A DNA stretch of 54,686 nt, filler included, from Sphacelaria rigidula (GCA_964200075.2; 5 parts of 5 records of this genome joined end to end with filler, not necessarily neighbours in it), one strand, 5' to 3'; positions 3,643-54,686 are shown, numbered from the whole stretch's first letter. Notes: generated by a model not told the origin, from the letters alone. A program made the numbers and translations.

Positions 3643-3901
3643 CAAGGGTCGGATAAATTAATGATTCGTCTGGAAGTTACTTGGTTTTAGTGTGTTTGAT
3701 TCGAATCGTCCGAATCATTCCCTAGGCCTTGTTTTCAGCGTTACAACCCAGGCACACGCAGCCCAGACGCGTAGAATGGCGCAAAAGTTGCGTCGATACC
3801 CCTTGGACCAGCGGTCGACTTCTTTCCTCGCTTTTGGGCAATCAGGCCGAAGAAACCGTGGATATGGTGATTCGAACCCGTGACGATTCGTCCTAACCGT
3901 G
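3643..3901. mobile_element. 259-bp MITE, family A, uninterrupted copy
   Basis: Imperfect TIRs CAAGGGTCGGATAAAT / ATTCGTCCTAACCGTG; perfect 8-bp TSD CACTATTC (3635-3642, 3902-3909); homologous interrupted copy at 15912-18772. Confidence 0.9.
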
Positions 3902-4854
3902 CACTATTCTACCAACACACGCCGGCGGTCCGACCAGTAAATCACAAGGGCCATTCTCAACGTCAAAACTTTCGAATGCCCAACTTCTTTTGCCCTCATG
4001 CTAGAATGCGCGCCTTGTGAGGGGGATACTGCCACAACGCCACAGAAAGGACGAAAATAAGGCACATGACGCGCGCCTGATTTGCGTCGAAAGAGCTAGA
4101 AAGATGAAAAAGCTTACAAAAAGAAGTACAAGAGCTCAATCGCGGGGAAAAACGCGCACACGGAACTAAAGCCTACTAAACACATGAACCAACCCTGAGC
4201 CAGTCAGAGACTTTCAAAATACTATTCCGAAATTCGATCGACCCGGGGCTGAATGGCCCGTTCTCACCTCAATTGTGAGAGTTGGGCTCTAAATTCTGGT
4301 GCGGAGAATGCATAGGGCATAATGATAATGAAAGAAACTCTGGAAATTGAGTGCTTTTTCTTCTCAACGATTTGAAGACAAAATCAGTTTTCAGTTTTTC
4401 AGTAAAATGCCGTTGACTCACGAAGAAAGAAAACAAAACTACCGTCCGGATGTTTTTGATGATTGTGCCCTTTTTATTCTCCGTACCAAATTTCAAGGTC
4501 CAATTCTGAAGGTTGACGTGAGGCATGGCCTGGAGACTACAAATTTGCATCTAGGCTAGACCAGTTCGTGTAATCGGTGGAAATCTGACGATGCGAATTC
4601 CCCACTTCACCGAAATGGTACGTTTCGGGGTATAACTCGATCCCATACAAATCGATTAAAAAAATATTGCGTTGGATCCCCTCGCTGATGGCAGCTACCA
4701 AGGCTTGATTTGGGATAGTATTGGGTATAAAGTGAGCCGGATTTTCACATTTTTATTTCAGAACCATTTCAAGGCCCCTGATTATCCGAGAACCATACTC
4801 ACTGCAAGCGCCACGGCAAAGGGCACAAGAAAATATCTGGCCATGTCACACCGC

Positions 4855-15949: not shown

Positions 15950-18544
15950 CAGGGGTCTACACGTTACACGTACCACAGCGTTACACGTAACGTGAACGTC
16001 AAAACAAAATTACATGATGAACGTAACGTTAAATTTTCGAATGGAACGTTGAAGAAACGGTAACAAATTTTAACGTGTCATACGTAACGTAACGTAAACG
16101 TGGATTTTGCCCAAACGTTCATATCACGTAATATGAAACGTTCCATGTAACGTGTAACGTCTATTACACGTTACACGTGACGTTAGATGTTGCGTTACAC
16201 GTTACATGAAACATCATGAACACGTCGCATGAGGTGGTCATTCTTCAAGGTTGCAATGAACTTTGAAATCCTGGAAGAGGGTGCTTCAATAAACACGAGT
16301 GAGTTTTAATGACCATGGTATACGTATGGTACTATTGCAGAAATTTCGCGCTCTCCCCAGCACACGTCACATTCCAAGTTACCGTTGCAGCATTACATCG
16401 TAACATCATAATCATCTCGACCACATTCAAGGCTACTTCTTATGTATAAAAAAAACACATTGTCAGAAAAGCCGTTTTTCAACAGCGCGATTTTCCACAT
16501 AATTTCTCAAAGTAGCCCATCTTACGTGATCGACGCACTGTCAAAATTTGAAACGTAGTGTTCATCGTTTTCTATGAGGTGTGCAGGGATAATCTCAAAT
16601 TCTGGGGCACGCGAGAGAGGCGTGGCACTCTGCTGTCGTGTTGTAGTGTACGGTCCGCGCTGACTGTCTGTACTACTGTGATACATTGCCTGAGCAATAC
16701 ATGGTGGGCTGCGTGTCGCCAGACGATAATACGAACACCGCCTCCCTGTACTAACTGAATGTAGAAGTAAAACGCCAGACATCCAGAATTGACCGCGCCC
16801 TATGGACCTCAGCAGCAAATAAGGAGGGGGGGTGCCGTGGCGCGCGGGGGTGCTGCAGGGAGCGGAGAGGTTCATGACCTCATGTCACATAAATGCAGAG
16901 GAGGCCAGCCGACTGCGTGCGATTACACGGGAGACCAACAAAGCCCAAATAACACAGCAATGACGACGGTCTAGAGAAGGGTGTGTGTGGAGTGAACCCC
17001 CCCATAAGGGGTGTCGTTATGTCATGCAGTGCTTGTCTTGATACACCTGGTATGCTTGTACGTATGGCTGTCCCTCGAGAGGTCGAAAGATGGAACCTTC
17101 GATTTTTACTTCTTTGGTTGGCGGTATTTGGGGCCTTGAGTCTCGCCCGTAGCGGACGCTGTGTTCATTTCTACTTAGCGTCGCGCGTCGAGTTGAAACG
17201 CCGGGTGCCACCCCCTGAAGTTCGAATGGCCACCTGCGGCACCGGATCTTCTGAGGTTAGCCATATGCATTCTCTTTCTTCTTTATTATTTATCCCTGTT
17301 TTGCTAGCCTGTGACCACAGAAGGCGTCCGCATCAGATGCCCAGTATGAATGTACCGCGTAGATATCGGGACGGTTTTCAATGTGAAGACAGTATCAACA
17401 ACAAGTGACGGTTGTGCTTTTTCACTCCACGGTAGTACTTGACTGAAAGGACAACTTGGACAACGGTACACACAGCAGTACTGTATTGTATGCATTGGCT
17501 GTAGTGATGGCTTGGCTGCCATCACCACCGCTACCGCTGGTGCTCGCGAGCAGTCAGCGTGTTGCTTTGTTGTCCTTTGCTAGCCAGTAGCGTGATGGCC
17601 CTTACCCCCATGCGAACAGAACAGGGCAGGGGCGATGACGAGTGCTGCGCAGACACGCTGCAGGTAGTTCGCACAGTAATGTAGCTCAGTTGAGGTCTGT
17701 GCATGCAGTGTGTTGCAAACAAAACTCGAATACAATGCAGACTGCCCAAGCACCCAAGCCCTGTGAACACTACAGCAGTAGCATTGCTTATACTGTGGTC
17801 TTGTGTGTACAGTCAGTGCGGTCCTGTCTCTCCAACTGTTGGGTGCGTGGGCAGTCTGTACTGCATTGCGAGTGCTGGTCGCAACACGCTGCATGCAGAC
17901 CTGAAATGCGAGTTACAATACTGTTGTCTGTGCAAACTACATGCAGAGTGTTTGCTACAGTACTCGTCATCGACCCTGCTGTGTGCTGTTCTCATGGGGT
18001 AAAGAGCCGCCACCATGATACTAACGAGCGAAGGACAACAAAGCAACACGCTGACTGCCCCCGAGCACCAGCGACAACAGTGGTAATGGCAGCCAAGCCA
18101 CGATGGCTGCTGTCGTGGGCGGGAGGGTGTGTTGGCGTGCGGCAGGATTTCAAATGCGTTTTCTGATCACAAAAGAAGTGGGTTTTTGGTCATTCATGAG
18201 GAAACGCGTTTTTTAATAGTTGTTTCTTTGAACATAGGAAGTAGCCGACGGATCACCGTCACCATCACGTACGCGGTAACATCACGCGTTACACGACACG
18301 TTCCAACGCCTTAAACACTGGTGAATCAGCCGCGACATGCACAGAATAAAACGTTACATTCGAACGTTACACGTGGCATTGAAACGTTTCATATTACGTG
18401 ACATGTAACGAAACGTAACGTTAATTTTTTTTCAAGTGATGAACATGACGTTATATTTCCAAATGAAACATTCACGTAACGTTAAAAATGATTTCACGTG
18501 ATGAACGTAACGTGAACGTGTAACGTGTAACGTGTAGACCCCCG
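15950..18544. mobile_element. 2595-bp non-autonomous hAT-like TIR element, family B, nested in MITE A
   Basis: 21-bp TIR CAGGGGTCTACACGTTACACG (1 mismatch); TSD AAAATTAC / GAAATTAC; about 250-bp subterminal ACGTTAC/GTAACGT arrays at both ends; empty site visible at 3673-3680. Confidence 0.92.
17508..18100. repeat. Long imperfect inverted repeat (foldback) inside element B
   Basis: Arms about 17508-17757 and 17839-18100 are reverse complements (e.g. cagtcagcgtgttgctttgttgtcctt / aaggacaacaaagcaacacgctgactg); loop about 80 nt. Confidence 0.9.
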
Positions 18545-18896
18545 GAAATTACTTGACTTAAGTGTATTTGGTTCATAAGGTACAAATCAATCCTTGGGCT
18601 TTGGTTTCAGCGATGCAACCTAGGTGCGCGCAGCCCAGACACGTGAAATGGCGCAAAAATTGCGTGTAGACTTTTTTGACCAGCGGTCAACCTTTTTCTC
18701 TCTTTCGAGACATCAAGCCTAGGAGATCGTGGATTTGGTGATTCGAACCGGCGAATATCCGTCCGAACCGTGCAACCCTTGCTGATCGTCGAGGTGGGAC
18801 ATCTGTCATCTGCAGAGCATCATATTCACTTAAACAGCGAACATGCGAATCAGATCGCCAAGCCTCGCGGTCACGGAAGGGGTCAGAAGCACTTAC

Positions 18897-24290: not shown

Positions 24291-24641
24291 CTACGACACA
24301 AAGCACGAAACGCAGGGAAAACAGGGATACGGCAAAAAAAGCACAATTCAAGGGTATGGGCAACTTTTCCGGCGAGAGCATTCCATCGCCAAAAATAAAC
24401 AGACGGGGCTACAGTAGCACGCTTCTTCACCCCATCGGCAAGCGACACGTCATCGAATGTTTTCTGTACTGACTCGGTCAGAGTGCTTCTTCTGGTCGTA
24501 TTCTCTTGACCCTCTATATTATCCCGCTCGTCAGAGGCACCTCCGAACACATCTGGGCTACATCTCCGTACCGCTCTTTCCCTCCACCCGAAGGACCCAC
24601 AGAGTTCTCACCAAGGCTCGTATCGCGGCCGCAACTCTTAC

Positions 24642-27143
24642 CTTCCGCCTTCTGCAACTTTTGGGCTTTCTTAGCTGAAGCAGGAGTGCCAACGCTATGA
24701 CGTCCACGCTTGGCGTTTCCCCCTCCTTCTCCGCTTTTTTGGGGTCGTGTGTGAAACCACCCGACCAATAGCATAGGCGTTTCTATCGCACCCCCACTCT
24801 CCGCTACCGCTACCATTGTCGTCGTCGTCGCTGCCGCCGCGGCATCAGCAGCGGGAGATGCTACAATCGCTGGGTTTCCGGTGTCACACGCGTTTGCTCC
24901 AGCTTCGTCTACTCCCTCGTCTGCGGTCTGGAGACGAGAAGCACCAGCATCGGCAGCAGTGGCGGCGGTTGCACAAGTGGAGGACGCGGTGGCGGCGTCT
25001 TCGCCCTGTGACCTCTCAACATCCGCAGCAGCAGCAGTTGTAGTAGTAGTAGCAGGAGCAGCAGCGGCGGCGGCAGCAGCAGCAGCGCGGGACGCAAGAA
25101 ACTCTTCTGGACTGAGGGTTTCAGCATCAGCTAAATCAAGGCTAGCTGTTTCACTTTCCGGCGTTGGGGTCGGGGGCATCGGTCGTCGATTTGAGAGCCA
25201 AGCCCCTGCAGCAACAGCAGCAGGCCGGGACGAAGGTCGGGCGATGGCCAGCTCTTTTTTCGCTGGGGTTTGTTGAGGCGGGATCAGGCTCGAGGCTTTG
25301 GGAAGATTGGCTTCTTCAGGGGAACGCGCCTTTGTTGGGGTCTTCTTCAATGAAGAGTCGCTGCTGACAGCGGCAACGTCCTGGGTCGAGTCCTTCGGGC
25401 GCCGGCCCTTCAAGTCGGCACCAGGCAGACGTTCGGGTTCAATCGGCAATCCGGCCCTTCCCCGCCCTTCTGAATCTGGTTTACTGACACGTTGCCCGAC
25501 CCCCGGGAGGTGTTTTGGCAGCTCTGTTATGTCCGGCGCACCACAGCTCCCTTCGGCATGCGCGCCCCGAACAGCACCTTCCTCACCCACCCCACCTTCC
25601 CCACCCACTTTACCCCTACTTTCTGTACGAGTGCAGCCCCCTTCTCCTTCATATGAAACAATATCGCCTCGACCACAAACACCAGCGCCCCAATTGGTTT
25701 TTCCCCTCGCTGCAGCGCCGTCTGTGAAGTATTCGGTTTCGGGGGTGGCGCAGTTGCTGGCAGGCCGTATCCTGCTTTGGCAGTTCACCTTATTATCGGT
25801 AGAGACGACCTTTTCGCCAGCAGGAGGAGCGCAGACGTCCGACCCACCAACCCCATCGACGGAGCTGCACTTACCACCATCTATCATCGTCCTCGAAACG
25901 GTTGTCCCTTGCTGCCTCGATGGTAGTGTGCTTTCCGCACGTAACTCTGGACAGTTCGCCTGTTCGGCGGCCTGCGGTGTCAATGCTCCGTGCACCTCCG
26001 GTGTTGCTGCTCCGGGAGCCCGGTTTGAACATTCGGACTGACCGGTCGATTCAGTCGGCTTAAAGGCTGCGGACTCGACTGCCCCCGACACCACAGCCCC
26101 AGTGTTCTGTGGGACACGCGAGTAGCTCCGTCGCTCCTCGCTTGTCCGTCCAGTATTCCCATCATCTTCCGCAAGACATACTTGGGGTAACCCCCTGCTA
26201 TTTGGCGGAAGTGTGGGCAAGCGGGACACCTTCTGCGTAGACTCATCCGCTGCAACGTGCTCGTTCTCGGTACGTGCCTCGGAATGCACACCTGCAATCT
26301 GATTCGCTTGAATTCCCTTGTTACATGCTCCCTCATCGGCAGGCGCATTTTGCATGCACCTAATTCCGTCAGACTGGTTGGCCCGCACAGTGTCCATTCG
26401 TGTTGGTGAAGATTCAGCTTCAGATTCCTCAGGTTCTTCCTCAACACCAACCAACGGCACGGGCACCATCGGCAAGACTTCTTCCACTTCCGTTTCGTAT
26501 CCATCCACATCCTCATCCGAACTCGCTGATCCTTCAACGTCCTTTTCAGGTTCCATCACTTCTCCTTCCTGCCCATGCTCCCCAGGCTCCGCATCAAGGC
26601 CGGCCTTGCTGGCAGTCTCGAGATAGGCACTGGGGGCTAACACATCTCCTCGAGCTGCGATACCCCGTGTGTCCTCACAATCCCCTACCTTTTGCTGATC
26701 CGCAGCATCATCGCGATTGTCGTGGACCTCCTCTATCTGTGTGTCACTCGTTTGATCCTCCGCTTCCAGTAAGACCTCGCAGTCTGTTTCTATGCCATCG
26801 TCGTAGCCGTCACTCTCCACCCTCTCTTCGACCCCCTCTTGTTCTAATTGTTGCTTCTCGGGTAGCACCGTCCCTTCCTCCTGCTCAACATTCGATTCTT
26901 CCTCCCATCTCGGACCACAGGCCTCATATACACCATCATCTCTCGTGTTACGCACGGACGCTCTTCGCGGAGAGTTTTCACCGCAGACGATGTCCTGCAG
27001 GTTGTCCCTAGTGTCCCTGCCGGCTACCGGAGAAGCGCGCACGGGCGAAGGCGCCGGTCCTGGAGCTCGGGCGGTGCACGTTCCTTCCAACGTCGATTCG
27101 GGCGTTTTGCCGTTACGAGCCAATGCAACCGGAGAAGGAGGAG

Positions 27144-27174
<31 letters not shown>

Positions 27175-27642
27175 GGGAGGAGGAGGTGCAGAAGCAGGAC
27201 TATCGTTCCCAATATAAGGGCCCTGCGCCCCTTCTCCTTTTGGGGGGTCTCGTTCCGGGGTATGTTCTCGGCGAGGGCTAGCCGAAAGAGAGTTTGATAA
27301 TTTGAGAGACCAGGGACTCCCGTTGTTGCTGTTGTTCTCGCTTCGGCCGTCGATACTTGGAGGTTTCCATCCGGGAGAAAATCCCGGTTTACTCACACTC
27401 CCGCGGCTACTGCGTGCCGGCGCAAGGAATTTTGGAGTATCTTTACCCGTGCCACTGCCGCTGAGCTGCCCGCTTGGGGACAAGGCTAGACATAGACTTG
27501 ATTGGAAGGACTCGTTGCTCTCTCTGCCTTGAGTCCCACGATGGCTATTGCTGCTAGGCAGCTGCTGCCGATCACGATGGCCTGCGGTCTTTCCAGGGGT
27601 TGAAACGCTTGCTGCCAATGCCGATAAATTTGTCCCGTGCTC
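24642..27642 (-). CDS. Exon 3 (3.0 kb) of the low-complexity protein gene
   Basis: tatAG acceptor in frame with ORF 24514-27618; GAAG|GTAAGA donor (phase 1; an alternative donor lies at about 24611); rich in S/A/E/G/P with poly-Pro and poly-Ala runs. Confidence 0.8.
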
Positions 27643-32874: not shown

Positions 32875-33798
32875 GTGGGGTCGTTTGTTTCTTGTCGTGT
32901 TGGCTGGGGTAAAGTACGTTCGCATGCTTGGTAGGCCTGGAATCGGCGCGCATTGCAGAGTGACATCGACTCTGTCGCTGCTAGTCTCAAGCTGGAGCTT
33001 CTCGACTAAATTGGTTTCCCAGAATTTCGAAATGATGTAACACGACGTCCTCTTGCACACTTGACCTTTCCCCGTACCAAGTGTGCGGTCGTTTGTTTCT
33101 TGCCGTGTTGATGGGGGTGAAGTACGTTCGCATGCTTGGTAGGCCTGGAATCGGCGCGCATTGCATGGCGACATCGATTCTGTCACTGCTAGTCTCAAGC
33201 TGGCGCTGCTCGACTCAATTTGTTTCCGAGAATTTCGAAATGATGTAACACGACGTCCTCTTGCACACTTGACCTTGCCCCCGTACCAAGTGTGCGGTCG
33301 TTTGTTTCTTGTCGTGTTGATGGGGGTAAAGTACGTTCGCATGCTTGGTAGGCCTGGAATCGGCGCGCATTGCAGGGCGACATCGATTATGTCACTGCTT
33401 GTCTCAAGCTGGAGCTGCTCGACTCAATTTGTTTCTAAAAAGTTTGAAATGATGTAACACGACGTCCTCTTGCACACTTGACCTTACCCCCGTACCAAGT
33501 GTGCGATCGTTCGTTTCTTGTCGTGTTGATGGGGGTAAAGTACGTTCGCATGCTTGGTAGGCCTAAAATCGACGCGCATTGGAGGGTGATATCGATTATG
33601 TCACTGCGAACACAGGCTCGAGCTGCTTGGCTCAATTTGTGTCCAAGGATTTCGGAATGTAGTTTCGGAACGTCAACTATGCGTCGTGGCTGATGTAACA
33701 CGACGTCCTCTTGCACACTTGATCTTGCCCCCTACCAAGTGTGCGGTCGTTTGTTTCTTGTCGCGTTGATGGGGGTAAAGTACGTTCGCATGCTTGGT
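32875..33798. repeat. Tandem array of ~209-bp units (at least 4.3 copies, truncated by contig start)
   Basis: Unit start gtgtgcg(g/a)tcgtt at 33081, 33290, 33499, 33739 (periods 209, 209, 240). Confidence 0.95.
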
Positions 33799-33850
33799 GG
33801 GCATAGATTCGTGTTTGAATTGGACTTTATATTTCATGTGTTATTTGTAA

Positions 33851-34699
33851 ATGATGATTTCGCACACCAAAATCAAGTTTCTTGTCGACACAGAACGCGT
33901 GGACGCAGGCAGTGTCCACGAGGCTATTAAGGAAAGATACCCCCTTATCCCCTACTGCGGCTTCTACGAGCTGCATAAGGAGATTCGTCTCTACGTTCAA
34001 CCCAAGCAACGGCGATCGGGAGCACAACTTTCGTACATTCTGTCTACACTCCGACCTCCAATCAAGATAAAGGAAATGTCTAAGTATTCCAAAATTGAAG
34101 GGGTATTGTTGGATGAATCCGGAGTTCGGACAGTACATGGTGGAAGACGAGTTTATTCCGAAGCGAGAGTTGGAGGTGCCGTGGCCACTGACAGCACTGG
34201 CCACCAGGGCATCTCTCCAACCAAGAAGAAAACCGTCACCGTGAACCCGTTCGGCCAAGCATCCTTGGGACACATTACTCTGGAGTTGGTCATGGACTTA
34301 GCGACCCGACCCACGTCTTGGGATCGAGTAAATGACTTTGCAAAATAATTGTACAGTGAAGAGGAGAACATGAATTTACGTCTACGGGCCAAGGAGGGCT
34401 ACGTGAAAGTACGCGTTGACGACGGTGAATGGGAGACGAAACCCAAGATACGCGAGTACGACGGGATCACAAAAAACCTTTTGCGGCAATATCGCGAGGT
34501 ATTGAATACTTTCAAAGACAGCATTTCGGAGGATGGTGTGGAGAGGTGTGAGAGGGTTTTAGCCAGCATCGAGTTTGATATGAGCAGCACTGACCCCGAA
34601 TACAGGGAGACTTACGAAATTTTCCGTGAAAACACTGCCACTGTAATCGGGGAAAACATTTTGGAAAAGGTTCGACGAAAGAAGTTAAACCTTGTTTGA
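33851..34699 (+). pseudogene. Intronless ~282-codon gene with one in-frame stop; resembles NCLDV (giant virus) hypothetical proteins
   Basis: ORFs 33851-34348 and 34349-34699 are in the same frame, split by TAA 34346-34348. The pattern NPFGQASLGHIT...LYSEEENMNLR...KEGYVKV...W recalls the NxFGxExLSHI...PENxNI...W domain common in NCLDV proteins (recognised by eye). Confidence 0.6.
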
Positions 34700-34789
34700 A
34701 GATGTGTAGTTGGGGGAGCAAAAATCTGCGGCTTGTGTAACTCTATAGCTTTCGTTTCCTCTCCACCTCATCTTCGCTAATCTCTAGTA

Positions 34790-36122
34790 CATGATCAAAC
34801 CACCGTACTCGTTTGTAGCAAGGCACGGGACAACACGTTCCTGCCATCATTTCTCTAGAGGAGTCGCTATCGCTCGGCGGCGTGCACCATAACACCAGGG
34901 ACTCGTCGAGAGGTATTTGCCTTCTGAACAGAGTATATGTGGGTCCAACAGAAAGTGGGGGTGGGCGGACATCTGGTCCGGCATCTTGAGATCAGTATAG
35001 AAAAGTGGCTTGCTCAGCACGCTCTCGCGGCCGGGTGAGAACAGGTCGGCGTGGTCTAAACATTTGTGAGCATCACATTTTCTCCCGGTACGCGTCGAAG
35101 AGCCTCGGCGATAGGCTCTGGTTGTTGTTGGTTTTGTGGAATGTACCAAATTCGGGCATGCCACTCTCTACTTTCTGGCGTGCTTGCGGCGAGATGAAAA
35201 GGATTGCCATGTGCAAAGTTATCTGTGCTGCATCCGCAAAAAATGCGCGGACAGCTCTAATTCCATCCGTCAGTTGTGAGGCGGAGAACGAAACACTACG
35301 TGCTGTATGGTATCTGAATCAACACCCTCGAGCAGTTGCCCGCGGCACAGGAAGCCGCGGAATGATTCTGCGAGCTGTTTGTTTCTCGCCATCATCATGG
35401 TAGACACAAACATGGTGGATTTGGAAAAGCAAAACATCGCGGTCGTCGCCGCTGACAGCGACGTAATATCGAGGACGTTTGATTCTTTTAGGTTATTCCG
35501 CAGCTGGCTAGCCACATCCTCGTTCCCCGCAAACAGATCCTCGCGCGACACGCGGCAAATGGACTCAATCAAACACTCTAAAACACTCGCTACGCACGAA
35601 TTCTCGCCACTTATTTCCCTTCGCCTCTCAAGAAAACGTAGGCACGCTCTGGTATCAACGGGAAACTTGCGTACCGCACATAACTGATCGCGTCAGATAA
35701 CTTTCCCCGCATCAACCAACAACTCTTGCAACGACGGAGACATAAGTATAAAACTGCACAACATACAAACAAGGACAAATCAGGCAGGGTCGTTGTGGTC
35801 CTCGAGGCACCGACTAACCAGCCTGCCCGACATGGCCGGGGAGAGGTGGTCGCTCAGCCGCTTGATTTTCTTGGCCCGTGAAAGAGTGAGGGGGCCGACG
35901 GGACCGCCGTTGCTGTTGCGGCGGCGGCGGCGGTCAGTCTGTGCCACCTCCGCATCGGGTGCGTGGAAGGCGGGCACCGGTTCCTCCATTTCTGTGTCTG
36001 TGTCACTGTCGGAGATGTCGTGGACGACGGGAGCCGGTTCCGTTACTGCTTCAGTCATCCGATATCTCCGTATCGGAGTTGGTTAGGTCGATGACCTCAC
36101 CGCCAGCGATATTGTCTGCCAT
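34790..36122 (-). pseudogene. Frameshifted, stop-interrupted gene of unknown function
   Basis: ATG at 36122 (MADNIAGGEVIDLTNSDTE); coding-like segments continue in shifting frames through ORFs 35780-36058, 35270-35572 and 34847-35164; a possible acceptor lies near 35755; boundaries approximate. Confidence 0.45.
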
Positions 36123-38070
36123 CCTGAATTGATGGGGATGAGTTTGATTTGTACAGGGAGTGGTGTGTTAAGATCCTGAGTGGCTCTTCGCTGTTGGATA
36201 TCTGCTGTGCATACAGACAAGATGTCACTGCCACACCATGAAAGAGGCGGAGTCAGGGTTGTTTTCCAAACCCACACATTGATCATTCCAAAAGAAAAAA
36301 AGAGCCATGCACGTACAATGAAATGTTTTCTGCTTTGCCGCCAAAACTGCAACTTGGGTATTTGATTTTGCCATGAAAATGTATGCATCGTGTAAACACG
36401 TGAACATAATGCTTCTCTGTGAGCCGGAAACAATGGGGCCGATGAAACAAGCCAGACCAATCTGCTCATGGATTCTATGTTCTCAACTCACGGATTCCAC
36501 ACACAACGCAGTCACGATAGGTGAAGATGAGAGAGGGATAACAATTGCAATCAGGAACAAAGGAACTCGAGTGTTTGAACGAAACGGCATGTTTGTGGCG
36601 TTTTGTTGTGTGCCCACCGGTAGGAGCACATGCAGTAGGATAGATCAGCAACAGAAACAGGATAAAGGTCTTCTTACACGCACGAAAAACAAAGCCGAGT
36701 ACACATATGCTCGTCAAAGCTCCGCTGTGCGTGTGTGTGTCCGGGACTTGTTCACCGTCTTTCTGTTGTTCTGTTTTCAGTTGTATTCTCACCGTAAGGT
36801 TCTGTGGCCCATGTAGGGGAAGGGGCAATTGCCGCCACCTCTCGCACCCAATCCTTGGCATCCCGGTGGCTCTTGGTCCATATATCCCCAAGCTGCAAGG
36901 CCCGCCCACCACACACACACACGCATTCACATCCACGTCGATCCAAGAGCCCAGCCGAAGGCGAGGATGGGTCTAGAGTGCGGGAAATGGCGAGGCGCAT
37001 AAAAAGGAGAATTCACAGGCAAAGAAAGTAAAGGACGATGTGCGCGGTTACGCTACATGAGGGGGTGCGTGCGGGACGCGATGGGATACCTGGGGGGCGG
37101 GCGTTCGCATGACTTACGAAAATCGAGGCAAAAAAAGACAATCTACACCGCTCTTCGCATGGTTTATGGGCATATTGCACATACATTCGAGAGTGTCGAG
37201 GTGGAAAAGTGCCGCGGAAGTTGTTCTGTATGGAGCAAGGCAAGACACGAATATCATTTGATCTAATGCATGCACACACGTGCAACAGCCACGTGCATCA
37301 AGCCAAAGCTTTCCGTGCCATATGGGTATTACATGCGTGGCGCATGAAATCTAAACCGCACGCGACCGGAACCTCACCTACTTAAGACACACACAAAGGT
37401 CTTCTGCCCGTGAAGAAACGGCTCTGTGCTGATCGACAGATGGATTCGGCAAAATCCAAGGACGCGACACAGTAGTGCCGAAAAGGGGCACGGGTGAAGA
37501 GCGCGTAGGGTGCTTCATATCACTGGCCTGCGATGGTAGAGCACAAGTGAAAGAGCGTGGTGAGATTACGGGGCGAAAGGGCGCAAGCACTGGATAAACA
37601 TGGAAAGGGGCGCGTTTACGCTACAGCTGGTCACATGATTGAATCTTGCGCAAAACATGACGGGCGTTTGCGGGACGAAGCGAAGCTTTGTTTCCGGTAG
37701 GTGTGATGGGGTAGAGAGAGGCTAGATACCAGGCAATAGGAGCGCCCGCGCGACTGGGGTTAGGGTAAACAATTTTGAGCATATTTCGGTGAACCATGCC
37801 TACGAGAGATTCTCGAGGTGGCAAAAAGTGAGCGGGTTTTGTTTTAAACTTTGAATTGCAAGACAGTGACACAAATCGTTTGATATGATGCACGCACGCC
37901 CGTGTAACACGCAAGCCAAACCTGAAACCAGGCGACGGCGATAGGATCGAAGAACGCAGTACGCTTCCTCTTCGCCTACTCTACTCCCTCTCGTTGATTG
38001 ACATAGACATCTCTCTCTCTGTGTCCTCTTGAAAAAAACACAGTAGACACACCGCAAAGCACTTGCTCAC

Positions 38071-38214
38071 CAGTTGACCACTCAGCAGGAAATCCCGTGC
38101 CGCCGCTTGCCCCTCCCGACTCTCACCCGCTATGCTTCTCACTGACACTGGTCCCTCATTTCCCCTCCGCCGATCGGTAGCAGACGAATCCCATCGTCCA
38201 AGCTCGTGAATCAC
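38071..38214 (-). CDS. Candidate isolated exon, product unknown
   Basis: tttttctgcgcAG acceptor and CTG|GTGAGC donor; 48 open codons VIHELGRWDSSATDRRR...LLSGQL. Confidence 0.3.
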
Positions 38215-39900
38215 CTGCGCAGAAAAAGGGAGGTGATGGGTGTAGGTAGTTGCGCGTGGCGTGCTTTCGGACTACCTGTGTGCGAGAGAGTGTGAGGAGG
38301 TAAGGGGAGTTGGCCTCACGTACAGCCAACAAGAATGTCTCTGCCCGTCTGATCTCTCTGGTCTCTCTCGCTTATAGCCCGACAAATACAGTTCGTTAAA
38401 CCCCGCGACAGGCATGATCAAGAACGATGCCACTTGAGTATCAAGTGTCGTTGGTCTTTTTTTTCTCTGCCCTTCAGCCACACGCATGGTCCAAAAACAA
38501 AAGGGGGGAGGGCTCTCACCGTTTTCGGTAGATCCAGCCGTCCGACTAGCAGCAACAACAACGAGAGGGTACGGGCGCTGTCCGTGGCGCGTGTCTGCTG
38601 GGGCACCTAAGAAAAGACAACGAGAGAAACGAGAGGCAGAGGTTCATCAATGAGAGCAGGAACATACATGCTAAAACGCATGACAAAAAAAGCGATCGCG
38701 CATGAAGTATTAGCCCAATAACAGGCCTTCAAGCAAGATTCAAAGAGGCGAGGAGTACGCAAAAGGGACATCAAGAGTAAGCTACGCTTCGCCACACTTG
38801 GGGTGTTCTATTTTGTCTCGCCTCTCTCTGGGTTGGGAACAGTCGGCCTCAGAGGAAGTTCGGTGGGTAAATCAAACCACCTTTGGAATGGTCATATCTT
38901 AACGGCAAACGGAGAGAACCCCATGTTCTTTGGTTGCAACAGTACTCAGACAATTTGCACAACGATTCGAACTGCTTTCGAGGAACATTCATTCATACAC
39001 ACATGCAAAATCTACAAATGTAACGGTCAAGAGTAGGAAAAGCGCATATGCCTACCAGACCAAGACGTTAATAAGCATTTTGACAGTGATAGCGCGCGTA
39101 CAATCTTCCATCCATAGTCAGCATTGCTGGTACTTGCAAAAACGCGTGTGAACGCTGACACTGGGCAATCTGGGCACGAAGAACACAACTAGTAATGCCG
39201 TTGCTGCAAGTACTAGTACTGCTGATGCTAACGCGAGAGCGGTGGGAGCAGAAAAAACAATCCAAGCTCGAGGCATTTGGTAGAAAGCTTTCCGAGGACA
39301 ACATAAGTCGAGTTGTAATGAAGGTGCGTATCGTGCCACATGCGTGACACGATAAAAAATGAAGCAACGGAATTCGAAGCTCCCCTGCGGTGCTTTTACC
39401 ACAAGAGATGCTTCGGCGAAAAGAAGGACCACCGCCGCGGCACAAGATAGATCCTCGGAGGATCCAAACGCGCAACCTAGCCGCACCAAAAACAGGGCAC
39501 GCGTGAAGAGTACGGGTAGTCGCGCGTGGCGTGCTTCGTCAACACCTGTGCAGGAAGGGTGTGCGTACAAGCAAAGGGAAAGGGCCGGAAACTGGTCTCA
39601 CAGACAAAGAACTACCTACCTCCCAAAGCCAGGAAAATGAAACAGCAATCCAAAAACAACGCACGCACACATTTCGTAAGACACCGCGACATGGCGATCA
39701 CTGACCAAGGCGATGGATTTTCTGTCGGCGAGATTGATCTTTTTCTCCGCTCTCAAACGATACACGGTTGACAAACATTAATGCAAGTGCGTACCGACCT
39801 CAACGGATTCAACCGTTGATCAGCAGCAACTACAATAATACTGCCCGCTCTCCGTGGCGCGTATCCCGTGAGTCACGTGAACACAGAGACCAAAGAGAAA

Positions 39901-39935
39901 GAGGGAGGGAGGGAGGGAGGGAGGGAGGGAGGGAG
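39901..39935. repeat. (GAGG)n microsatellite
   Basis: About 8 units seen directly. Confidence 0.9.
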
Positions 39936-40137
39936 AGCAGTGTTCATACAACAGGTGGTGGCGGGGGTAGCCGTAGCAGTGGTGACGACTCCGACAACAA
40001 TTCAGACCAGAGCACGGTACCGGAAACCACAGGAACCAAGCGATGCGCTCCGGATTTCAAACCTTCCCCACCGTCTTCGGATTATTAGCACGTAACTTTG
40101 GTGTGGCACGAAGCGCACCCCAGCCTCATTCTAAGCC

Positions 40138-42519
40138 ATGGCCTCTTCTCGTGCCAACAAGCGCGTGAAAGTTTCGTCGTCAACTAAATAATCCGTGACG
40201 ACGCTCAACAACACGGCATTCGACGAGAAAGACGTGGCCGAATCGAAAACGCACACGAAAATGAATTTCCGGTGCCCGGTCACAATCGACAATGTCTTCA
40301 GCGCGCCGACGTCCACGCAGGTCAAGGTGTTCTACGAGTCTAGGAGCAGCACAGGAAAACCTTTTGATCACTTGCCCAACGGCGAAGATCTTGCCTGGAC
40401 CGAGTCTTTCCACGACAACAAGACGTTGATGGGATTCATTGTGTACGCCCAGCTTTTTCCCAAGCTGTTGCAGAACAGAATCAAGCTCAATGCCGCAACG
40501 TACCACTGGGCGCATTTGGACAACTCCTCGGAAAAGGGGAGGACCAAACTCGAGCAACGTCGCCGCGCCGTAGACAGGCTCAAGAGAAATGGGTTCACGC
40601 GCTCGATCTTTATGGGACTTCCGTACAGGGTGGACACCTCGGCAAACATACTGACCTTCATGAAGATGGACGTGGAGGAAGAGGACGAGAGGTTCAGGTT
40701 TTTTACCAAGCGCGAGTTTTCCATGATTTTTTCGAAGCGGGGACAAGTCGGCAGTTCGTCTGTGTACGCCTCGTGCTCCATGGCGCTGTCCCTACTCTGG
40801 TTTGCAACGGCGGTTTTGGCCCGGCCGTGCTGCCTCGAGTCTATCATCCTTCCACTCTCCGTGATGGAAAGGCGAACGATGGAGCAGAGATTCAAGTGCC
40901 CGCCGCAATTTTTCGACGGGCCCATCCGAAGCTTTCAAACCAACTGGAAAGACGTGTTCGCCGCCATCGACACGCAGCATCGGAACATCAACTACACGTT
41001 GCTCGAGAAAGCGTGCGAACACAAGTACATAGAGGGTGTGCACATTGCCGATGTCTATGCCGTATTTCGAGCAACCATGACGGCCCCAGATGACATGAAC
41101 AGCATCGCGGCTTTGGTGCGATCCTACAAACAACATTCGAAGCACGGGGTCGAATCCGGGGCTATTGTCGGCGTCATTGATGTCATCAGGGACAAACCGG
41201 TCGACGCCATTGGTAAAATCGACGGCGGGGTTCTAGGCACCATATTTTCTACCTATGGAGAGAGGGCGTGCCTCAAGGTCCACGCGGAGTGCAAAAGGCT
41301 GGAAGGAGGGTCGTCTCTGTTTGACGACAGTGTCAGCAACAAGCTAAATGAGATTTTGGCGCACTTCGATTGCGAGCTGTGGAAGGCACGGAAGAAGGAC
41401 AAGGTGGAGCGTGTCGTTGCCGCTAACATGGACCCCGCCGGCATGAACAAAAAGATTGAGGGAGGGAAGATGCTCGACCCCACCGACCCGAAATCAATTG
41501 AGCTCATGCACACAATGCTAAAGTCCATCTCGGGGCAGGTTTGGAAACCCCTCAAGAAATTGATTGGGAAAGTGCTGGGGGCAAGCCTCGAGTACCCGGC
41601 CGCCTTCCTGAGCATTACACGGGAAGAGGGAGAACAGCTGTACAAGCACATGATAACTGCGGGCGTTACTTACACCGATATCGCCAACCTCTGCACGCTT
41701 CTTCTCCTGAGCTTCTCTTTCCAGCGCTCCCAGGTGCTGCGAGAATCAACTATCGACGAGTTTGTACTCGCGCCAGACGCGACGCACTACAAGTTTTCCT
41801 TCAAGGGTAGGAAGTTCAAAACTGCATCTTCGGGAGGGGCCTCGTCCGCACCGCCTGTGTCACACTTTATGCTATCGCCAGATCAGTCCATGATCACAAG
41901 GTTCATAGCTACTGTGGGGCACATGTATTGCGGTATACAGTGCTTGGACAATGAAGCAAGGAGGCTGTTTGTTCATTCAGAGGGTCAAAGCTGGACTCAG
42001 AAAGACATATCGTCGGGCTTCAAGAGGATTGGTATGCATTGGTTGGGCATCTCCAATTTTGGACCCCATGTCTGTCGAACCTTTTGGTCCACGCATGCCC
42101 TTAACTCTGGACAAATCAGTGGCTCTAATTTGGAGGACTTCAGTAGCTTTCTACGAGTTTCGAGCACCACTCTGAGAAACAGCTGCATGTCGGCAGCAGC
42201 GAATACCGCCGCGCACACCGTGGGTAACGAAATGTTGGGGGCGGTAGTGAACTCCGCTTGCACGGGAGAAACGACAGAGAAGGGCGCTCGGCCGTAAGGG
42301 AAGAAACTGAGCGCTAGGAGGCTTGGATTTGCGGGAAACATTCGAGCCTCTCTGGCAAAGCACAGCGGTAGCGGTGGACTCCTGTTCCGTGCTTTTTTGC
42401 AGAAGAGGAATGCTTCTCAGCTTGTAGAGGGAGAAACATGGTTTCGTTGGGAGAACGCGTTTTTCAGTCAGAGCGATGAAAGACTGTTTCAACGGTTTGT
42501 GGACAAGGTGAACGCTTAA
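40138..42519 (+). pseudogene. Tyrosine recombinase/integrase with a ~500-aa N-terminal extension, inactivated
   Basis: Single intronless frame from ATG 40138 to TAA 42519 with premature TAA at 40189-40191 and 42295-42297. Motifs FQRSQVLRE (Arg, 41725), FKT (Lys, 41818), GPHVCR (HxxR, 42067-42078) and FLRVSSTTLRNSC, where the expected catalytic Tyr reads TGC/Cys (42184-42186). Confidence 0.82.
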
Positions 42520-43730
42520 ATATATTTATGGAACTTGTCAGTGTAGAAAAGCCCCGCCATTTGGGGCGAGTGTCAAAAAACATTATGTCACAGCAACACT
42601 TGGATGGGTGGCAGGGAGGAGTCACTACTGCTGGTTCGACCGTGCTCAAGGCAGAAATGGGGGTTGTGCAGCTGCTGATACACAACTGTTCCTCACACAT
42701 CGATTTTCAGTCATTTTTCTATCCGACAGGAGGATCTCAAAAGCTTCACAAACGTAAAGCACGCGAAGAGCACTTGTGCCGTTCGCGCATGAGAACATGT
42801 AACCCTTCTTTCCTGATGCTGCCACCGCTGCCGACGCAGACAAAATAATACGATCACGCACGCACACACCTCAATTCTGCACGCAGCTCACCTCTCATAT
42901 TGGTTTCCAGGTTACATAAAGGCCTGAGTCATAGCCACAGCAAAAGGACCATCCCCATCAACCGACCCTGCACTCCATCCCTCCAGCACGTTCGAGATGG
43001 CACGCCCGTTGGCTCCCTCAGCGGCCCGGTAGGCGTATGCGCGTAGTGTTGGCAAAGCGACACCCACCGTGCTACATCGATCGTTCGCAGGCTGCCACGT
43101 ATGAAGAGGACGGCCAGTCGGCCGAAGGTCCTTTTGGCGGCTTTGTCCAGCTGCGTGGTGTAGAATTGAAGAAGAGCGAAAGTGCACGTTGTATTGAAAA
43201 ATAATACTAAATGAAAACACCACTTCTCTCCACCCCTTCGCGTCTCACCGACAGGTACAACAGCAAGCAAGACGGCGCGTTCCTCGGGTACGACAAGGAG
43301 AACAAAAGGGGGAAATCTGAAAGAAAACATCAAAGCGCAGGAAATACTCAGGAGAACCACGGGATCGTGATCGGTCGGCAAGTCGGGATGGTGACCGGTA
43401 CTCATAAATTGAACCAGGTGAAGGCGGGTAGATAGGATGTCGGCCATCGGCTCGGCCATGTTGTTTCACATTCTTTTGAAAGAGAGATCAAGTAGAGCTG
43501 GCATCTCAAAACCTGACCATCAGATTTCAAAATCTGGCTTTCGCAAAACTAAATTGAGTTTTCCAAAATCTGTGAAACTGGTTTCTTGGTACTGAGTGAT
43601 GCTATGGTAGGGGTACACAAATATTTTCTGAGATTAGAATTGTTAGGAGCCCTTTATCTCACCTGAAACACGACTTATGAAAATATGCGAGAGTACACCA
43701 GGATTACTATCACAACGTGCTGGGGATATC

Positions 43731-50710: not shown

Positions 50711-53700
50711 CATATCACAGCCCGGACATAAACATGAAATAGGGAAGCTAACCCTCCTTTTCTTAAGCCTACCACAACACAGCCCGGACATGGACATGAA
50801 ATAAAGGAGGTAACCCTCCTTTCACTTCACGTACCATAATACAGCCCGGACATAGACATGGAACTCGTTTTCCCTTAACTTGCCATAACAGAGCCTGGAT
50901 ATAGACATTAAATAAAGGAGCCAACCCTCCTTCATACCACCTACCCTAACACAGCCATGAACATGAAACTCCTTTACCCCTAACATGCCATAACACAGCC
51001 CGGACATAGACATGGAACAAAGAGGCTAACCCTCCTTTTCCTTGAAGCTACCATGACACAGTCCGGACATAGACATGAAAAAGATAAGCTGACCCTACTT
51101 CTTCTCCAACCTATCATAACGCAGCCCGGACATAGACATGGAACAAGAAGGCTGACCCTCCTTTTCTTTAGCCTACCATAACACAGCCCGGTCATGGACA
51201 TGAAAAAAAGAAGATATGCCCCCTCCCCTTTCTCTTCTTCAAGACAACATCACACAGCCCGGACACAGACGTGAAATGAAAAAGCTAACCCTCATTTTAC
51301 TTCACGTACCATAATACAGCCCGAACATAGACATGAAACTCATTTTTCTCCAAGATAACATCATACAGCCCGGACATAGACATGGAGCAAAGAAGACAAC
51401 CCTCCTTTTATATCACCTACCGTAACACAGCCAGGACATAGGCATGAAACTCCTCTACCTCTAACATGCCCTAACACGGCCCGGACATGGACATGGAGTA
51501 GAGAAGCTAACCATCCTTTTACTTCAACCTACCATAGCGCAGCCCGGACATAGACATGGAGTAGAGAAGATAACCATCGTTTTCTTTTAACCGACCCTAA
51601 CACAGCCCGGACATAGACATGAAATAAAAAAGTCAACCCTCCTTTTACTTCACGTACCATAATACAGCCAGGACATAGACATGGAACAGAAAGCCTAACC
51701 CTCCTTTTCTTTAGCCTACCATAACACAGCCCGATCATGGACATGAAATAGAGAAGATAACCCCTTTTATTTTTTTCTTCAACATAACATCACACAACCC
51801 GGACATAGACATGAATAACATGAAGAAGCCAACCCTCCTTTTACTTCACGTACCATAATACAGCCAGGACATAGACATGGAACAGGAAGACTAACCCTGC
51901 TTTTCTTCAGCCTACCATAACACAGCCCGGTCATGGACATGACATAGAGAAGATAACCCCTTTTTTTTTTTCATCAACATAACATCACACAACCCCGACA
52001 TAGACATGAAATGAAGAAGCCAACCCTCCTTTTACTTCACGTACCATAACACAGCCCGGACATAGACATGGAGTAGAGAAGCTAACCATCGTTTTCTTTC
52101 AACCGACCCTAACACAGCCCGGACATAGACATGAAATAAAAACGTCAACCCTCCTTTTACTTCACGCACAATAATACAGCCAGGACATAGACATGGAACA
52201 GGAAAGCTAACCCTCCTCTTCTTTAGCCTACCATAACACAGCCCGATCATGGACATGAAATAGAGAAGATAACCCCTTTTTTTCTTTTCTTCAACATAAC
52301 ATCACACAACCCGGACATAGACATGAATAACATGAAGAAGCCAACCCTCCTTTTACTTCACGTACCATAACACAGCCCGGACATAGACATGGAGTAGAAT
52401 AGCTAACCATCGTTTCTTTCAACCGACCCTAGCACCGGCCGGACATAGACATGAAATGAAAACGTCAACCCTTCTTTCAATTCACGCACCATAATACAGA
52501 TAGGACATAGACATGGAACAGGAAGACTAACCCTGCTTTTCTTTAGCCTACCATCACACAGCCCGATCATGGACATGAAATAGAGAAGATAACCCCTTTT
52601 TTTCTGTTCTTTAACATAACATCACACAACCCGGACATAGGCATGAAATGAAGAAGCCAACCCTCCTTTTCTTTAGCCCAACACAACACGGCCCGGATAT
52701 AGACATGAAATAAAGAAGGCTAACCCTCCTTTCACTTCACGTACCATAATACAGCCAGGACATAGACATGGAACTCGTTTTCCCTTAACTTGCCATAACA
52801 CAGCCCGGATATAGACATGGAATACAAAAGCCAACCCTCCTTCATACCACCTACCCTAACACAGCCATGGTCATGAAACTCCTGTACCCCTAACATGCCA
52901 TAACACAGCCCGGACATAGACATGGAACAAAGAGGCTAACCCTCGTTTTCCTTGAAAATACCATGACACAGTCCGGACATAGACATACAAAAGATAAGCT
53001 GACCCTACTTCTTCTCCAAGCTATCATAACGCAGCCAGGACATAGACATGGAACAAGAAGGCTGACCCTCCTTTTCTTTAGCCTACCATAACACAGCCCG
53101 GTCATGGACATGAAATAGAGAAGATATGCCCCCTCCCCTTTCTCTTCTTCAAGACAACATCACACAGCCCGGACACAGACGTGAAATGAAAAAGCTAACC
53201 CTCATTTTACTTCACGTACCATAATACAGCCCGGACATAGACATGAAACTCATTTTTCTCCAAGATAACATCATACAGCCCGGACATAGACATGGAGCAC
53301 AGAAGACAACCCTCCTTTTATATCACCTACCGTAACACAGCCAGGACATAGGCATGAAACTCCTCTACCTCTAACATGCCATAACACAGCCCGGACATGG
53401 ACATGGAGTAGAGAAGCTAACCATCCTTTTACTTCAACCTACCATAGCGCAGCCCGGACATAGACATGGAGTAGGGAAGCTAACCATCGTTTTCTTTTAC
53501 CCGACCCTAACACAGCCCGGACATGAACATGAAATCAAAAAGTCAACCCTCCTTTTACTTCACGCACCATGATACAGCCAGGACATAGACATGGAACAGA
53601 ATGCCTAACCCTCCTTTTCTTTAGCCTACCACAACACAGCCCGATCATGGACATGAAATAGAGAAGATAACCCCTTTTTTTTTTCTTTAACATAACATCA

Positions 53701-54634
53701 CACAACCCGGACATAGACAAGGATAAAATGAAGAAGCCAACCCTCCTTTTACTTCACGGACCATAATACAGATAGGACATAGACATAGAACAGGAAGACT
53801 TACCCTCCTTTTCTTCAGTCTACCATAACACAGCCCGATCATGGACATGACATAGAGAAGATAACCCCTTTTTTTCTTTTCTTCAACATAACATCACACA
53901 ACCCCGACATAGACATGAAATGAAGAAGCCAACCCTCCTTTTACTTCACGTACCAAAATACAGCCCGGACATAGACATGGAGTAGAGAAGCTAACCATCG
54001 TTTTTTTTCAACCGACCCTAACACCGGCCGGACATAGACATGAAATAAAAACGTCAACCCTCCTTTTACTTCACGCACCATAATACAGATAGGACATAGA
54101 CATGGAACAGGAAGACTAACCCTGCTTTTCTTTAGCCTACCATCACACAGCCCGATCATGGACATGAAATAGAGAAGATAACCCCTTTTTTTCTTTTCTT
54201 CAACATAACATCACACAACCCGGACATAAACATGAAATGAAGAAGCCAACCCTCCTTTTCTTTAGCCCAACACAACACGGCCCGGACATAGACATGAAAT
54301 AAAGAAGGTAACCCTCCTTTCACTTCACGTACCATAATACAGCCAGGACATAGACATGGAACTCGTTTTCCCTTAACTTGCCATAACAGAGCCCGGATAT
54401 AGACATGGAATACAAAAGCCAACCCTCCTTCATACCACCTACCCTAACACAGCCATGGACATGAAACTCCTGTACCCCTAACATGCCATAACACAGCCCG
54501 GACATAGACATGGAACAAAGAGGCTAACCCTCCTTTTCCTTGAAGCTGCCATGACACAGTCCGGACATAGACATGAAAAAGATAAGCTGACCCTACTTCT
54601 TCTCCAACCTCTCATAACGCAGCCCGGACATAGA
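50711..54634. repeat. Satellite array, ~60-bp monomers with higher-order repeat
   Basis: Core CACAGCCCGGACATAGACATG repeated roughly 60 times; diagnostic variant gaactcgttttcccttaacttgcc at 50861, 52771, 54359. Confidence 0.97.
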
Positions 54635-54686
54635 CAACAGTGTTTTCGTGAGATTGAGAGTAGATGATACGATTGAGAGTGGCTTT
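54635..54686. mobile_element. Terminus of a second family-F element abutting or inserted into the satellite
   Basis: CAACAGTGTTTTCGTGAGATTGAGAG matches the family-F TIR; it cuts a satellite monomer at ...catagA. Confidence 0.7.

Follow-up and report, generated by a model that had tools for sequence, protein, structure and literature searches.

Phaeoviruses (Nucleocytoviricota, genus Phaeovirus) are described as circularising and integrating via a recombinase, with a CC core proposed between attP and attB (PMC13236599). The genes of EsV-1 are reported to make up just 70% of its genome and to lie in islands between repeats and non-coding DNA (PMC2373305). A catalogue of the viral regions of brown algae gives 792 in 72 genomes, 81% of them 2-50 kb long and mostly on short contigs, with genes that are mostly monoexonic and silent and with the integrase recombinase as a marker (bioRxiv 10.1101/2024.02.19.579948). 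The majority of phaeovirus insertions are reported to persist only as silent remnants. For nine endogenous viral elements (EVEs) of Ectocarpus a G+C content (GC) of 51.5-52.5% is given (PMC13236599), and recombinase genes of 2343-2424 bp, located 0.5-17 kb from the EVE end, are tabulated for five EVEs (PMC13236599, Supplementary Table S4). The DNA analysed here, a stretch of 54,686 nucleotides from the brown alga Sphacelaria rigidula (GCA_964200075.2) that is called the window below, consists of five contigs joined by runs of N. Its fourth contig (contig 4, 32875-43730, 10.9 kb), the whole of which is covered by the finding, is probably a piece of a decayed endogenous phaeovirus of a brown alga; protein similarity places the source among the brown algae, close to Ectocarpus.

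Contig 4 resembles the known endogenous phaeovirus elements, as far as these are described (the EsV-1 provirus, EVEa-i of PMC13236599, the 792 catalogued regions and the Porterinema EVEs of PMC11890097), in its brown-algal host, its monoexonic genes and its large integrase. The likeness extends to a GC of 51-52% (51.2% on contig 4), a length in the 2-50 kb class and a degenerate integrase gene. Unlike these elements, it has no hallmark gene or defined end, and its integrase is damaged by stops and a changed nucleophile, whereas frameshifted integrase genes are reported from elsewhere. The word endogenous is used because the genes are decayed; its basis is this decay and not a host flank.

A preliminary description of contig 4, generated by a model from the nucleotide sequence, had listed a 209-bp tandem array, a stop-split open reading frame (ORF), a convergent frameshifted gene and a recombinase pseudogene, and all four are present in the sequence. 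The features are given below with the evidence in parentheses.

32875-33811, no strand: 209-bp tandem array, cut by the left end of the contig (Tandem Repeats Finder (TRF), self-BLAST, unit alignment)
33851-34699, plus strand: ORF A, an intronless pseudogene of a ~280-aa family, with TAA at 34346-34348 (homologues, alignment, BFVD)
34746-35743, minus strand: gene B, a probable PRTase-CE pseudogene (tblastn, frameshift-aware alignment, Pfam on relatives)
35780-36058, minus strand: acidic ORF of 92 aa, apparently intact (translation; like segment in P0082)
36100-40137, no strand: gene-free 4-kb spacer (Pfam scan, repeat search, TRF, composition)
40138-42519, plus strand: large tyrosine recombinase pseudogene, an integrase of the EsV-1-213/FirrV-1-B4 type (homologues, BFVD, Pfam)
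42517-42528, no strand: perfect 12-nt AT palindrome over the recombinase stop codon (script scan)
42520-43730, no strand: 1.2-kb tail (composition; no similarity to other contigs)

The large tyrosine recombinase

The recombinase gene (2382 bp) was colinear with proteins of ~790 aa from Ectocarpales, among them, from end to end, a homologue of 793 aa (P0002) at 91.3% identity, with neither a frameshift nor an intron. The search for homologues returned 64 proteins at E ≤ 0.001, which included the window's own and one partial outlier and left 62 relatives. The closest of these (80-92% identity) came from several Ectocarpus species, with several paralogues named from one strain, and more distant matches were obtained from Pylaiella, Scytosiphon, Sphacelaria and Hapterophycus. 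Members of the family are ~790 aa long, and the catalytic residues R, H, R and Y were invariant in 41 of them. The Phage_integrase domain (PF00589) was detected at E ≤ 0.01 in 15 of these 41 (best 2.2e-5), and the window recombinase itself gave E 0.098 with the same model (12.9 bits, with the cut-off at 27.1). In the PDB, searches by sequence yielded chance matches with the single recombinase sequence (E 0.69) and none at E ≤ 1 with the family profile, and tblastn of the recombinase against a phage collection gave no match.

The relationship to phaeovirus integrases was seen at the level of predicted structure. For the closest intact relative, an AlphaFold model (mean predicted local distance difference test score (pLDDT) 80.5) was compared with BFVD, a library of predicted viral structures in which matches were counted at E ≤ 0.001. 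Only two were found at this threshold, namely FirrV-1-B4 (E 5.5e-23, 26% identity over 768 columns) and a protein of the Feldmannia species virus (E 1.3e-6). Phage integrases followed at E 0.03-0.3, with a match probability of 0.97-1.00 for those at E 0.03-0.1; EsV-1-213 itself was not among the BFVD matches of the model. FirrV-1-B4 (689 aa) is described as a homologue of the EsV-1 integrase EsV-1-213 (786 aa) (Delaroque and Boland 2008, PMC2373305), and the 213-homologues of Ectocarpus are reported to share 25-27% identity with FirrV-1-B4 and 56% with EsV-1-213 (PMC2373305). The ~26% identity to FirrV-1-B4 found here is at the same level as that reported for the Ectocarpus 213-homologues, and the likeness to EsV-1-213 runs via FirrV-1-B4. 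The window recombinase also shares with the EsV-1-213/FirrV-1-B4 family a length of ~790 aa, a C-terminal domain with R-H-R-Y and an extensive N-terminal portion for which no relatives are known; for comparison, the recombinase of EVEc is reported to have been modelled as residues 69-860 (PMC13236599, 2026 Nature Microbiology, Ectocarpus EVEs). A difference from that family is that the window copy is inactive.

Indeed, in-frame stops interrupt the gene at codons 18 (40189-40191) and 720 (42295-42297), and the position of the catalytic tyrosine (42184-42186) is occupied by cysteine, with the second stop 37 codons after it. The window copy broke 3 of the 95 columns that are invariant in the 41 relatives, all three within the catalytic domain and one of them the catalytic tyrosine; in a leave-one-out control, the relatives themselves broke 0-7 invariant columns. 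The two stops and the cysteine bear out the earlier call of a recombinase pseudogene, and the window recombinase is a dead member of a tyrosine recombinase family. Because the integrase lacks its nucleophile and is truncated twice, the fragment would no longer be self-mobile, and would stay in place unless acted on in trans.

The EsV-1-231-like gene, its convergent neighbour and their linkage

ORF A begins with an ATG at 33851/33854, 39 nt past the last remnant of the repeats, and is open to 34699 except for the single in-frame TAA. It was colinear with a homologue of 281 aa at 94% identity, without intron or frameshift, in agreement with the earlier statement that an intronless, stop-split ORF lies just after the array. 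Twelve relatives were identified (34-94% identity), and in each of the 12 a sense residue occupies the alignment column in which the window copy has its stop. A structural model of the closest intact relative (P0065, pLDDT 74.8) matched two BFVD entries at E ≤ 0.001, EsV-1-231 (E 2.8e-17, 24% identity over 275 columns, template modelling (TM) score 0.44) and FirrV-1-C6 (E 9.1e-5). The nearest language-model clusters of ORF A, 3 of 3, were of Nucleocytoviricota (scores 0.87-0.88), a result of lead grade. No Pfam domain was found in the three intact relatives scanned, and comparison of the fold with the PDB gave no match at E ≤ 0.001; at lead grade, the N-terminal domain showed a weak fold likeness (E 0.03-0.1) to the origin-binding domain of SV40 T-antigen and to circovirus Rep domains. 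Matches of fragments on contig 4 to Transposase_29 (E 0.017), RPN7 and Ku were dismissed as noise; they were below the cut-offs, and Transposase_29 was absent in the three intact relatives of ORF A.

Phaeovirus homologues were found in this way for two of the three decayed genes, the recombinase (FirrV-1-B4 and the Feldmannia species virus protein) and ORF A (EsV-1-231 and FirrV-1-C6). All three genes are monoexonic and were colinear with their homologues over 793 residues for the recombinase, 281 for ORF A and ~330 for gene B. The host genes of Ectocarpus are intron-rich. Absence of introns, two phaeovirus-related genes and the GC of 51.2% favour a virus over a transposon.

Gene B runs from 35743 to 34746 on the minus strand, convergent with ORF A, and the stop codons of the two are 43 nt apart. 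Its longest open piece (140 aa) found 16 protein representatives at E ≤ 0.001, one of which was the window's own fragment. Intact relatives are 345-371 aa long, and P0078 (345 aa) is 61% identical over the 140-aa piece. Frameshift-aware alignment of gene B to three intact relatives was colinear over ~330 residues without an intron and revealed one in-frame stop (35693-35695) and five to six frameshifts (near 35475, 35432, 35292, 35149, 35075 and 34914); a deletion of four codons at 35292 takes out part of the acidic PRTase motif. Identities in these alignments were 223/330 to P0078 and 226/327 to P0094.

The probable family of gene B emerged from its relatives. The Pfam family PRTase-CE (PF24390) was found on all four relatives scanned, one of them above the gathering score (cut-off 27 bits; P0088 33.9, P0078 26.1, P0092 24.3 and P0090 20.7 bits), and precomputed annotation placed PF24390 on 6 of 12 relatives; the pieces of gene B in the window itself gave no PRTase-CE match in the Pfam scan. 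The language-model clusters nearest to the relatives were also PRTase-CE, and one of the three is 91% viral, with Nucleocytoviricota as its commonest phylum. The convergent gene was thus correctly described as frameshifted but is not the orphan it had been taken for, having homologues and a Pfam family. In matching PRTase-CE, its relatives resemble the PRTase effectors of bacterial conflict systems (PF24390; PADLOC retron type III-A; NF053875). Their matches to the retron III-A PRTase and PRTase-like anti-phage models were weak and far below the cut-offs, and the setting here, in contrast to those systems, is that of a eukaryotic virus, the gene in the window being itself destroyed. The acidic ORF lies on the same strand as gene B, directly upstream of it. 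No Pfam family was found in the acidic ORF, and the same acidic segment precedes a gene-B-like sequence in P0082, which is from another source.

The convergent arrangement may recur outside the window. The longest contig was of 3210 bp for both P0066 (ORF A) and P0093 (gene B) (JGI/Logan), and of 2325 bp for both P0073 (ORF A) and P0100 (gene B) (Logan). These equal longest contigs suggest, indirectly, that the ORF A/gene B convergent pair is conserved at other loci. No recombinase homologue had a matching contig of 3210 or 2325 bp, a comparison without power, as both lengths are below the 5.4 kb that separate the genes here. A related neighbourhood is reported for region A of Ectocarpus NZVic14, where a single 51-kb region contains ORF 1, a portion of ORF 231, the viral terminal repeats and a tandem pair of 213-homologues (PMC2373305). 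As described there, region A is like contig 4 in that a short stretch of integrated viral DNA brings together a block of repeats, a gene like 231 and a recombinase like 213. The order and the distances differ, and in contig 4 there is a single recombinase gene, accompanied by a PRTase-CE gene and a spacer of 4 kb.

These observations bear on the idea that unrelated host genes and a satellite came together on contig 4 by chance. None of the three genes has an intron, and phaeovirus relatives exist for two of them. Elsewhere, homologues of ORF A apparently lie on the same contigs as homologues of gene B, and a neighbourhood of 231, repeats and 213-homologue is already known from Ectocarpus in the published account (PMC2373305). 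A chance grouping is, in our estimate, the least credible explanation of contig 4 and can be given next to no weight.

Viral or transposon origin

Two origins had been offered in the preliminary description, a large recombinase-mobilised cargo element and an endogenous giant-virus region. The second is supported by the FirrV-1-B4-type integrase, by ORF A with its relationship to EsV-1-231 and FirrV-1-C6, and by the PRTase-CE gene with its partly viral clusters. A phaeovirus would have integrated by means of its tyrosine recombinase, as is the case for EsV-1-type viruses, and the piece would then have decayed. The fragment may derive from a region near a viral end, and the 209-bp array and the gene-free 4-kb spacer may represent the repeat and non-coding component of the virus. 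Both fit the gene-island layout of EsV-1.

TRF placed the array at 32875-33659 (period 209, 3.8 copies, 90% matches, score 1248), and self-BLAST carried it to 33811 (731-bp alignments, 87.3%). By unit alignment it comprises four complete 209-bp units, the last of which carries an insertion of 33 nt, followed by part of a fifth. Since it begins at the first base of contig 4, the size seen is a lower bound. One unit folded as single-stranded DNA formed no structure beyond that of shuffled sequences (z = +1.5). The spacer yielded no Pfam family among its frames of at least 45 aa. AT skew is positive across most of it, and it contains two copies of a 48-nt motif (38233-38280 and 39503-39550, 1270 nt apart) that are 75% identical, with a 22-nt core at 95%. 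TRF also identified a (GAGG)n microsatellite at 39901-39935.

The palindrome at 42517-42528 is the sole AT-rich palindrome with arms of at least 6 nt on contig 4 and may be a putative terminator or a protein-binding site. A scan for ATACC and for AT palindromes gave no convincing junction and did not identify the palindrome as an att element. The tail beyond it has a GC of 49%, dropping to 43% over the last 350 nt. It contains a frame of 178 aa (42929-43465, minus strand) in which no Pfam family was found, bears no similarity to the other four contigs, and may belong either to the virus, as non-coding DNA, or to the flanking host sequence.

Several points weigh against an endogenous phaeovirus. 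Pfam scans of contig 4 did not find the hallmark genes MCP, PolB, A32 ATPase, D5 helicase/primase, VLTF3 or SFII. These scans were made at E ≤ 0.01 over 98 of the 152 stop-to-stop frames of at least 45 aa, namely those outside the region of the array and ORF A and outside the recombinase, and returned no family; the 10 longest frames, scanned separately, gave sub-threshold matches only. The earlier statement that no capsid, polB, packaging ATPase or primase is visible accordingly holds. Neither a host gene, a host repeat nor a host-virus junction was identified on contig 4, and 4 kb of it is without recognisable content. The match between ORF A and EsV-1-231 is only at 24% identity and a TM score of 0.44, and ORF 231 has been doubted as a real gene in the literature (PMC2373305). 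Gene B is without a demonstrated homologue in any sequenced phaeovirus, and algal DNA outside EVEs is also reported to contain genes like EsV-1-213 (PMC11890097). Finally, decay is uneven, with six frameshifts in the 1 kb of gene B and none in the recombinase and ORF A (3.2 kb together), which is not accounted for by a simple neutral clock running since a single integration. As to the first point, a 10.9-kb piece of a genome of 290-410 kb need not hold a hallmark gene.

The absence of viral hallmarks also speaks for an alternative, in which contig 4 would be a non-viral, recombinase-mobilised element, or a solitary algal EsV-1-213-like locus with cargo, that moves or once moved independently in the manner of Cryptons or Starships and merely has genes in common with phaeoviruses. 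We regard this explanation as unlikely. It would accommodate the highly multicopy state of the recombinase family, with its 62 relatives and its several paralogues in one Ectocarpus strain, and EsV-1-213-like genes have been described in algal DNA away from EVEs (PMC11890097, PMC2373305). The algal 213-like genes of the former report are, however, described as lacking the catalytic site (PMC11890097), whereas 41 relatives of the window copy keep R, H, R and Y, and ORF A is matched best by proteins from two phaeoviruses that have been sequenced. Contig 4 shows no unit bounded by terminal repeats, whether inverted or direct; the search for element ends found just short imperfect inverted pairs and the one 48-nt direct pair inside the spacer.

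Cryptons, DIRS/Ngaro elements and Starships resemble contig 4 in that mobility is presumed to depend on a tyrosine recombinase and, in the case of Starships, in their cargo genes. Contig 4 differs from them in containing no reverse transcriptase or RNase H (as in DIRS), no bounded short element (as in Crypton) and no DUF3435-type captain, and the nearest relatives of its recombinase are viral. A DIRS/Ngaro element was not supported, no reverse transcriptase or RNase H family being present in any scanned frame, and a Crypton was likewise unsupported, with no terminal repeats seen on contig 4. In the curated library of Ectocarpus transposable elements, as published, no Crypton is given and DIRS are the only tyrosine-recombinase elements (PMC12477816). 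The transposon reading is less likely than the viral reading.

The other contigs of the window provided a comparison of repeat content (BLAST high-scoring segment pairs (HSPs) at E ≤ 1e-5). Contigs 1 and 2 shared five HSPs and contigs 1 and 3 shared one, whereas neither contig 4 nor contig 5 shared any. The earlier claim that contig 4 is devoid of the short interspersed and miniature inverted-repeat element (SINE/MITE) families filling the other four contigs thus stands for contig 4 and fails for contig 5, and because contig 5 shares none either, the absence of such repeats is only weakly discriminating. The dispersed short repeats common to contigs 1 and 2 (38-232 bp, 68-87% identity; e.g. 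3643-3903 and 18544-18774), together with the one in contigs 1 and 3, are presumably the SINE/MITE-like families that were meant.

Contig 3, which is GC-rich, carries a 1042-aa open frame (24514-27642, minus strand) with runs of Pro, Ala, Glu and Ser and no Pfam family, which resembles a long, disordered host-gene exon. Contig 5 contains ~4 kb of satellite (50716-54636) with a basic unit of 62-63 bp, higher-order periods of 105-320 bp and a strong skew of C over G (about -0.31). No RNA gene was found in the window by Rfam at gathering scores, and a tRNA scan of the whole window was likewise empty.

Uneven decay and a possible end module

Protein-to-DNA alignments confirmed that all three genes carry lesions, as had been noted: stops, frameshifts, a motif deletion and the change of Tyr to Cys. 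A copy of gene B from another source (P0083, ~90% identical) reads through three of the frameshift sites of the window copy and is broken differently. This points to a recent, lineage-specific origin of the gene B lesions, and selection on gene B may have ended before it did on the integrase.

The frameshift sites of gene B are not in long homopolymers, and the recombinase contains nine homopolymers of at least 5 nt without a frameshift; assembly error is therefore an unlikely cause of the gene B frameshifts. This bears on a further explanation, in which contig 4 belongs to a free or replicating virus that was sequenced together with the alga, its lesions being assembly errors or polymorphisms of the live virus. 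Contig 4 has no host flank and ends in a repeat array, a typical assembly break, as such an explanation would allow. Against it stand the lesions distributed across three genes: in-frame stops at four positions, loss of the catalytic tyrosine by substitution, six frameshifts and the deletion of a motif. The frameshifts also lie outside long homopolymers, and the homopolymers of the recombinase are unshifted. We consider a free virus highly improbable.

Within a phaeoviral origin, the integrase might, together with the array, the EsV-1-231-like gene and the pair of acidic ORF and PRTase-CE gene, constitute a conserved phaeovirus 'end module' with semi-autonomous persistence or spread in algal genomes. 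Neighbouring repeats would be the target of one protein of the module, and nearby att sites that of the recombinase. We assign this conjecture a very low probability; if true, it would account for the many solitary 213-like genes in brown algae.

Contig 4 is of a kind already known. Decayed phaeovirus fragments of 2-50 kb have been catalogued by the hundreds in brown algae, of which it is an ordinary new instance, and the fragment by itself matters little in genomes littered with phaeovirus remains. Three modest points arise from it. A PRTase-CE gene, with a domain otherwise tied to bacterial conflict systems, adjoins an EsV-1-231-like gene, apparently as a conserved pair. The EsV-1-231-like protein, formerly doubted as the product of a gene, sits in a conserved family of ~280 aa with 12 relatives. 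The different pace at which the three genes have decayed bears on the time for which viral genes stay under selection before or after endogenisation.

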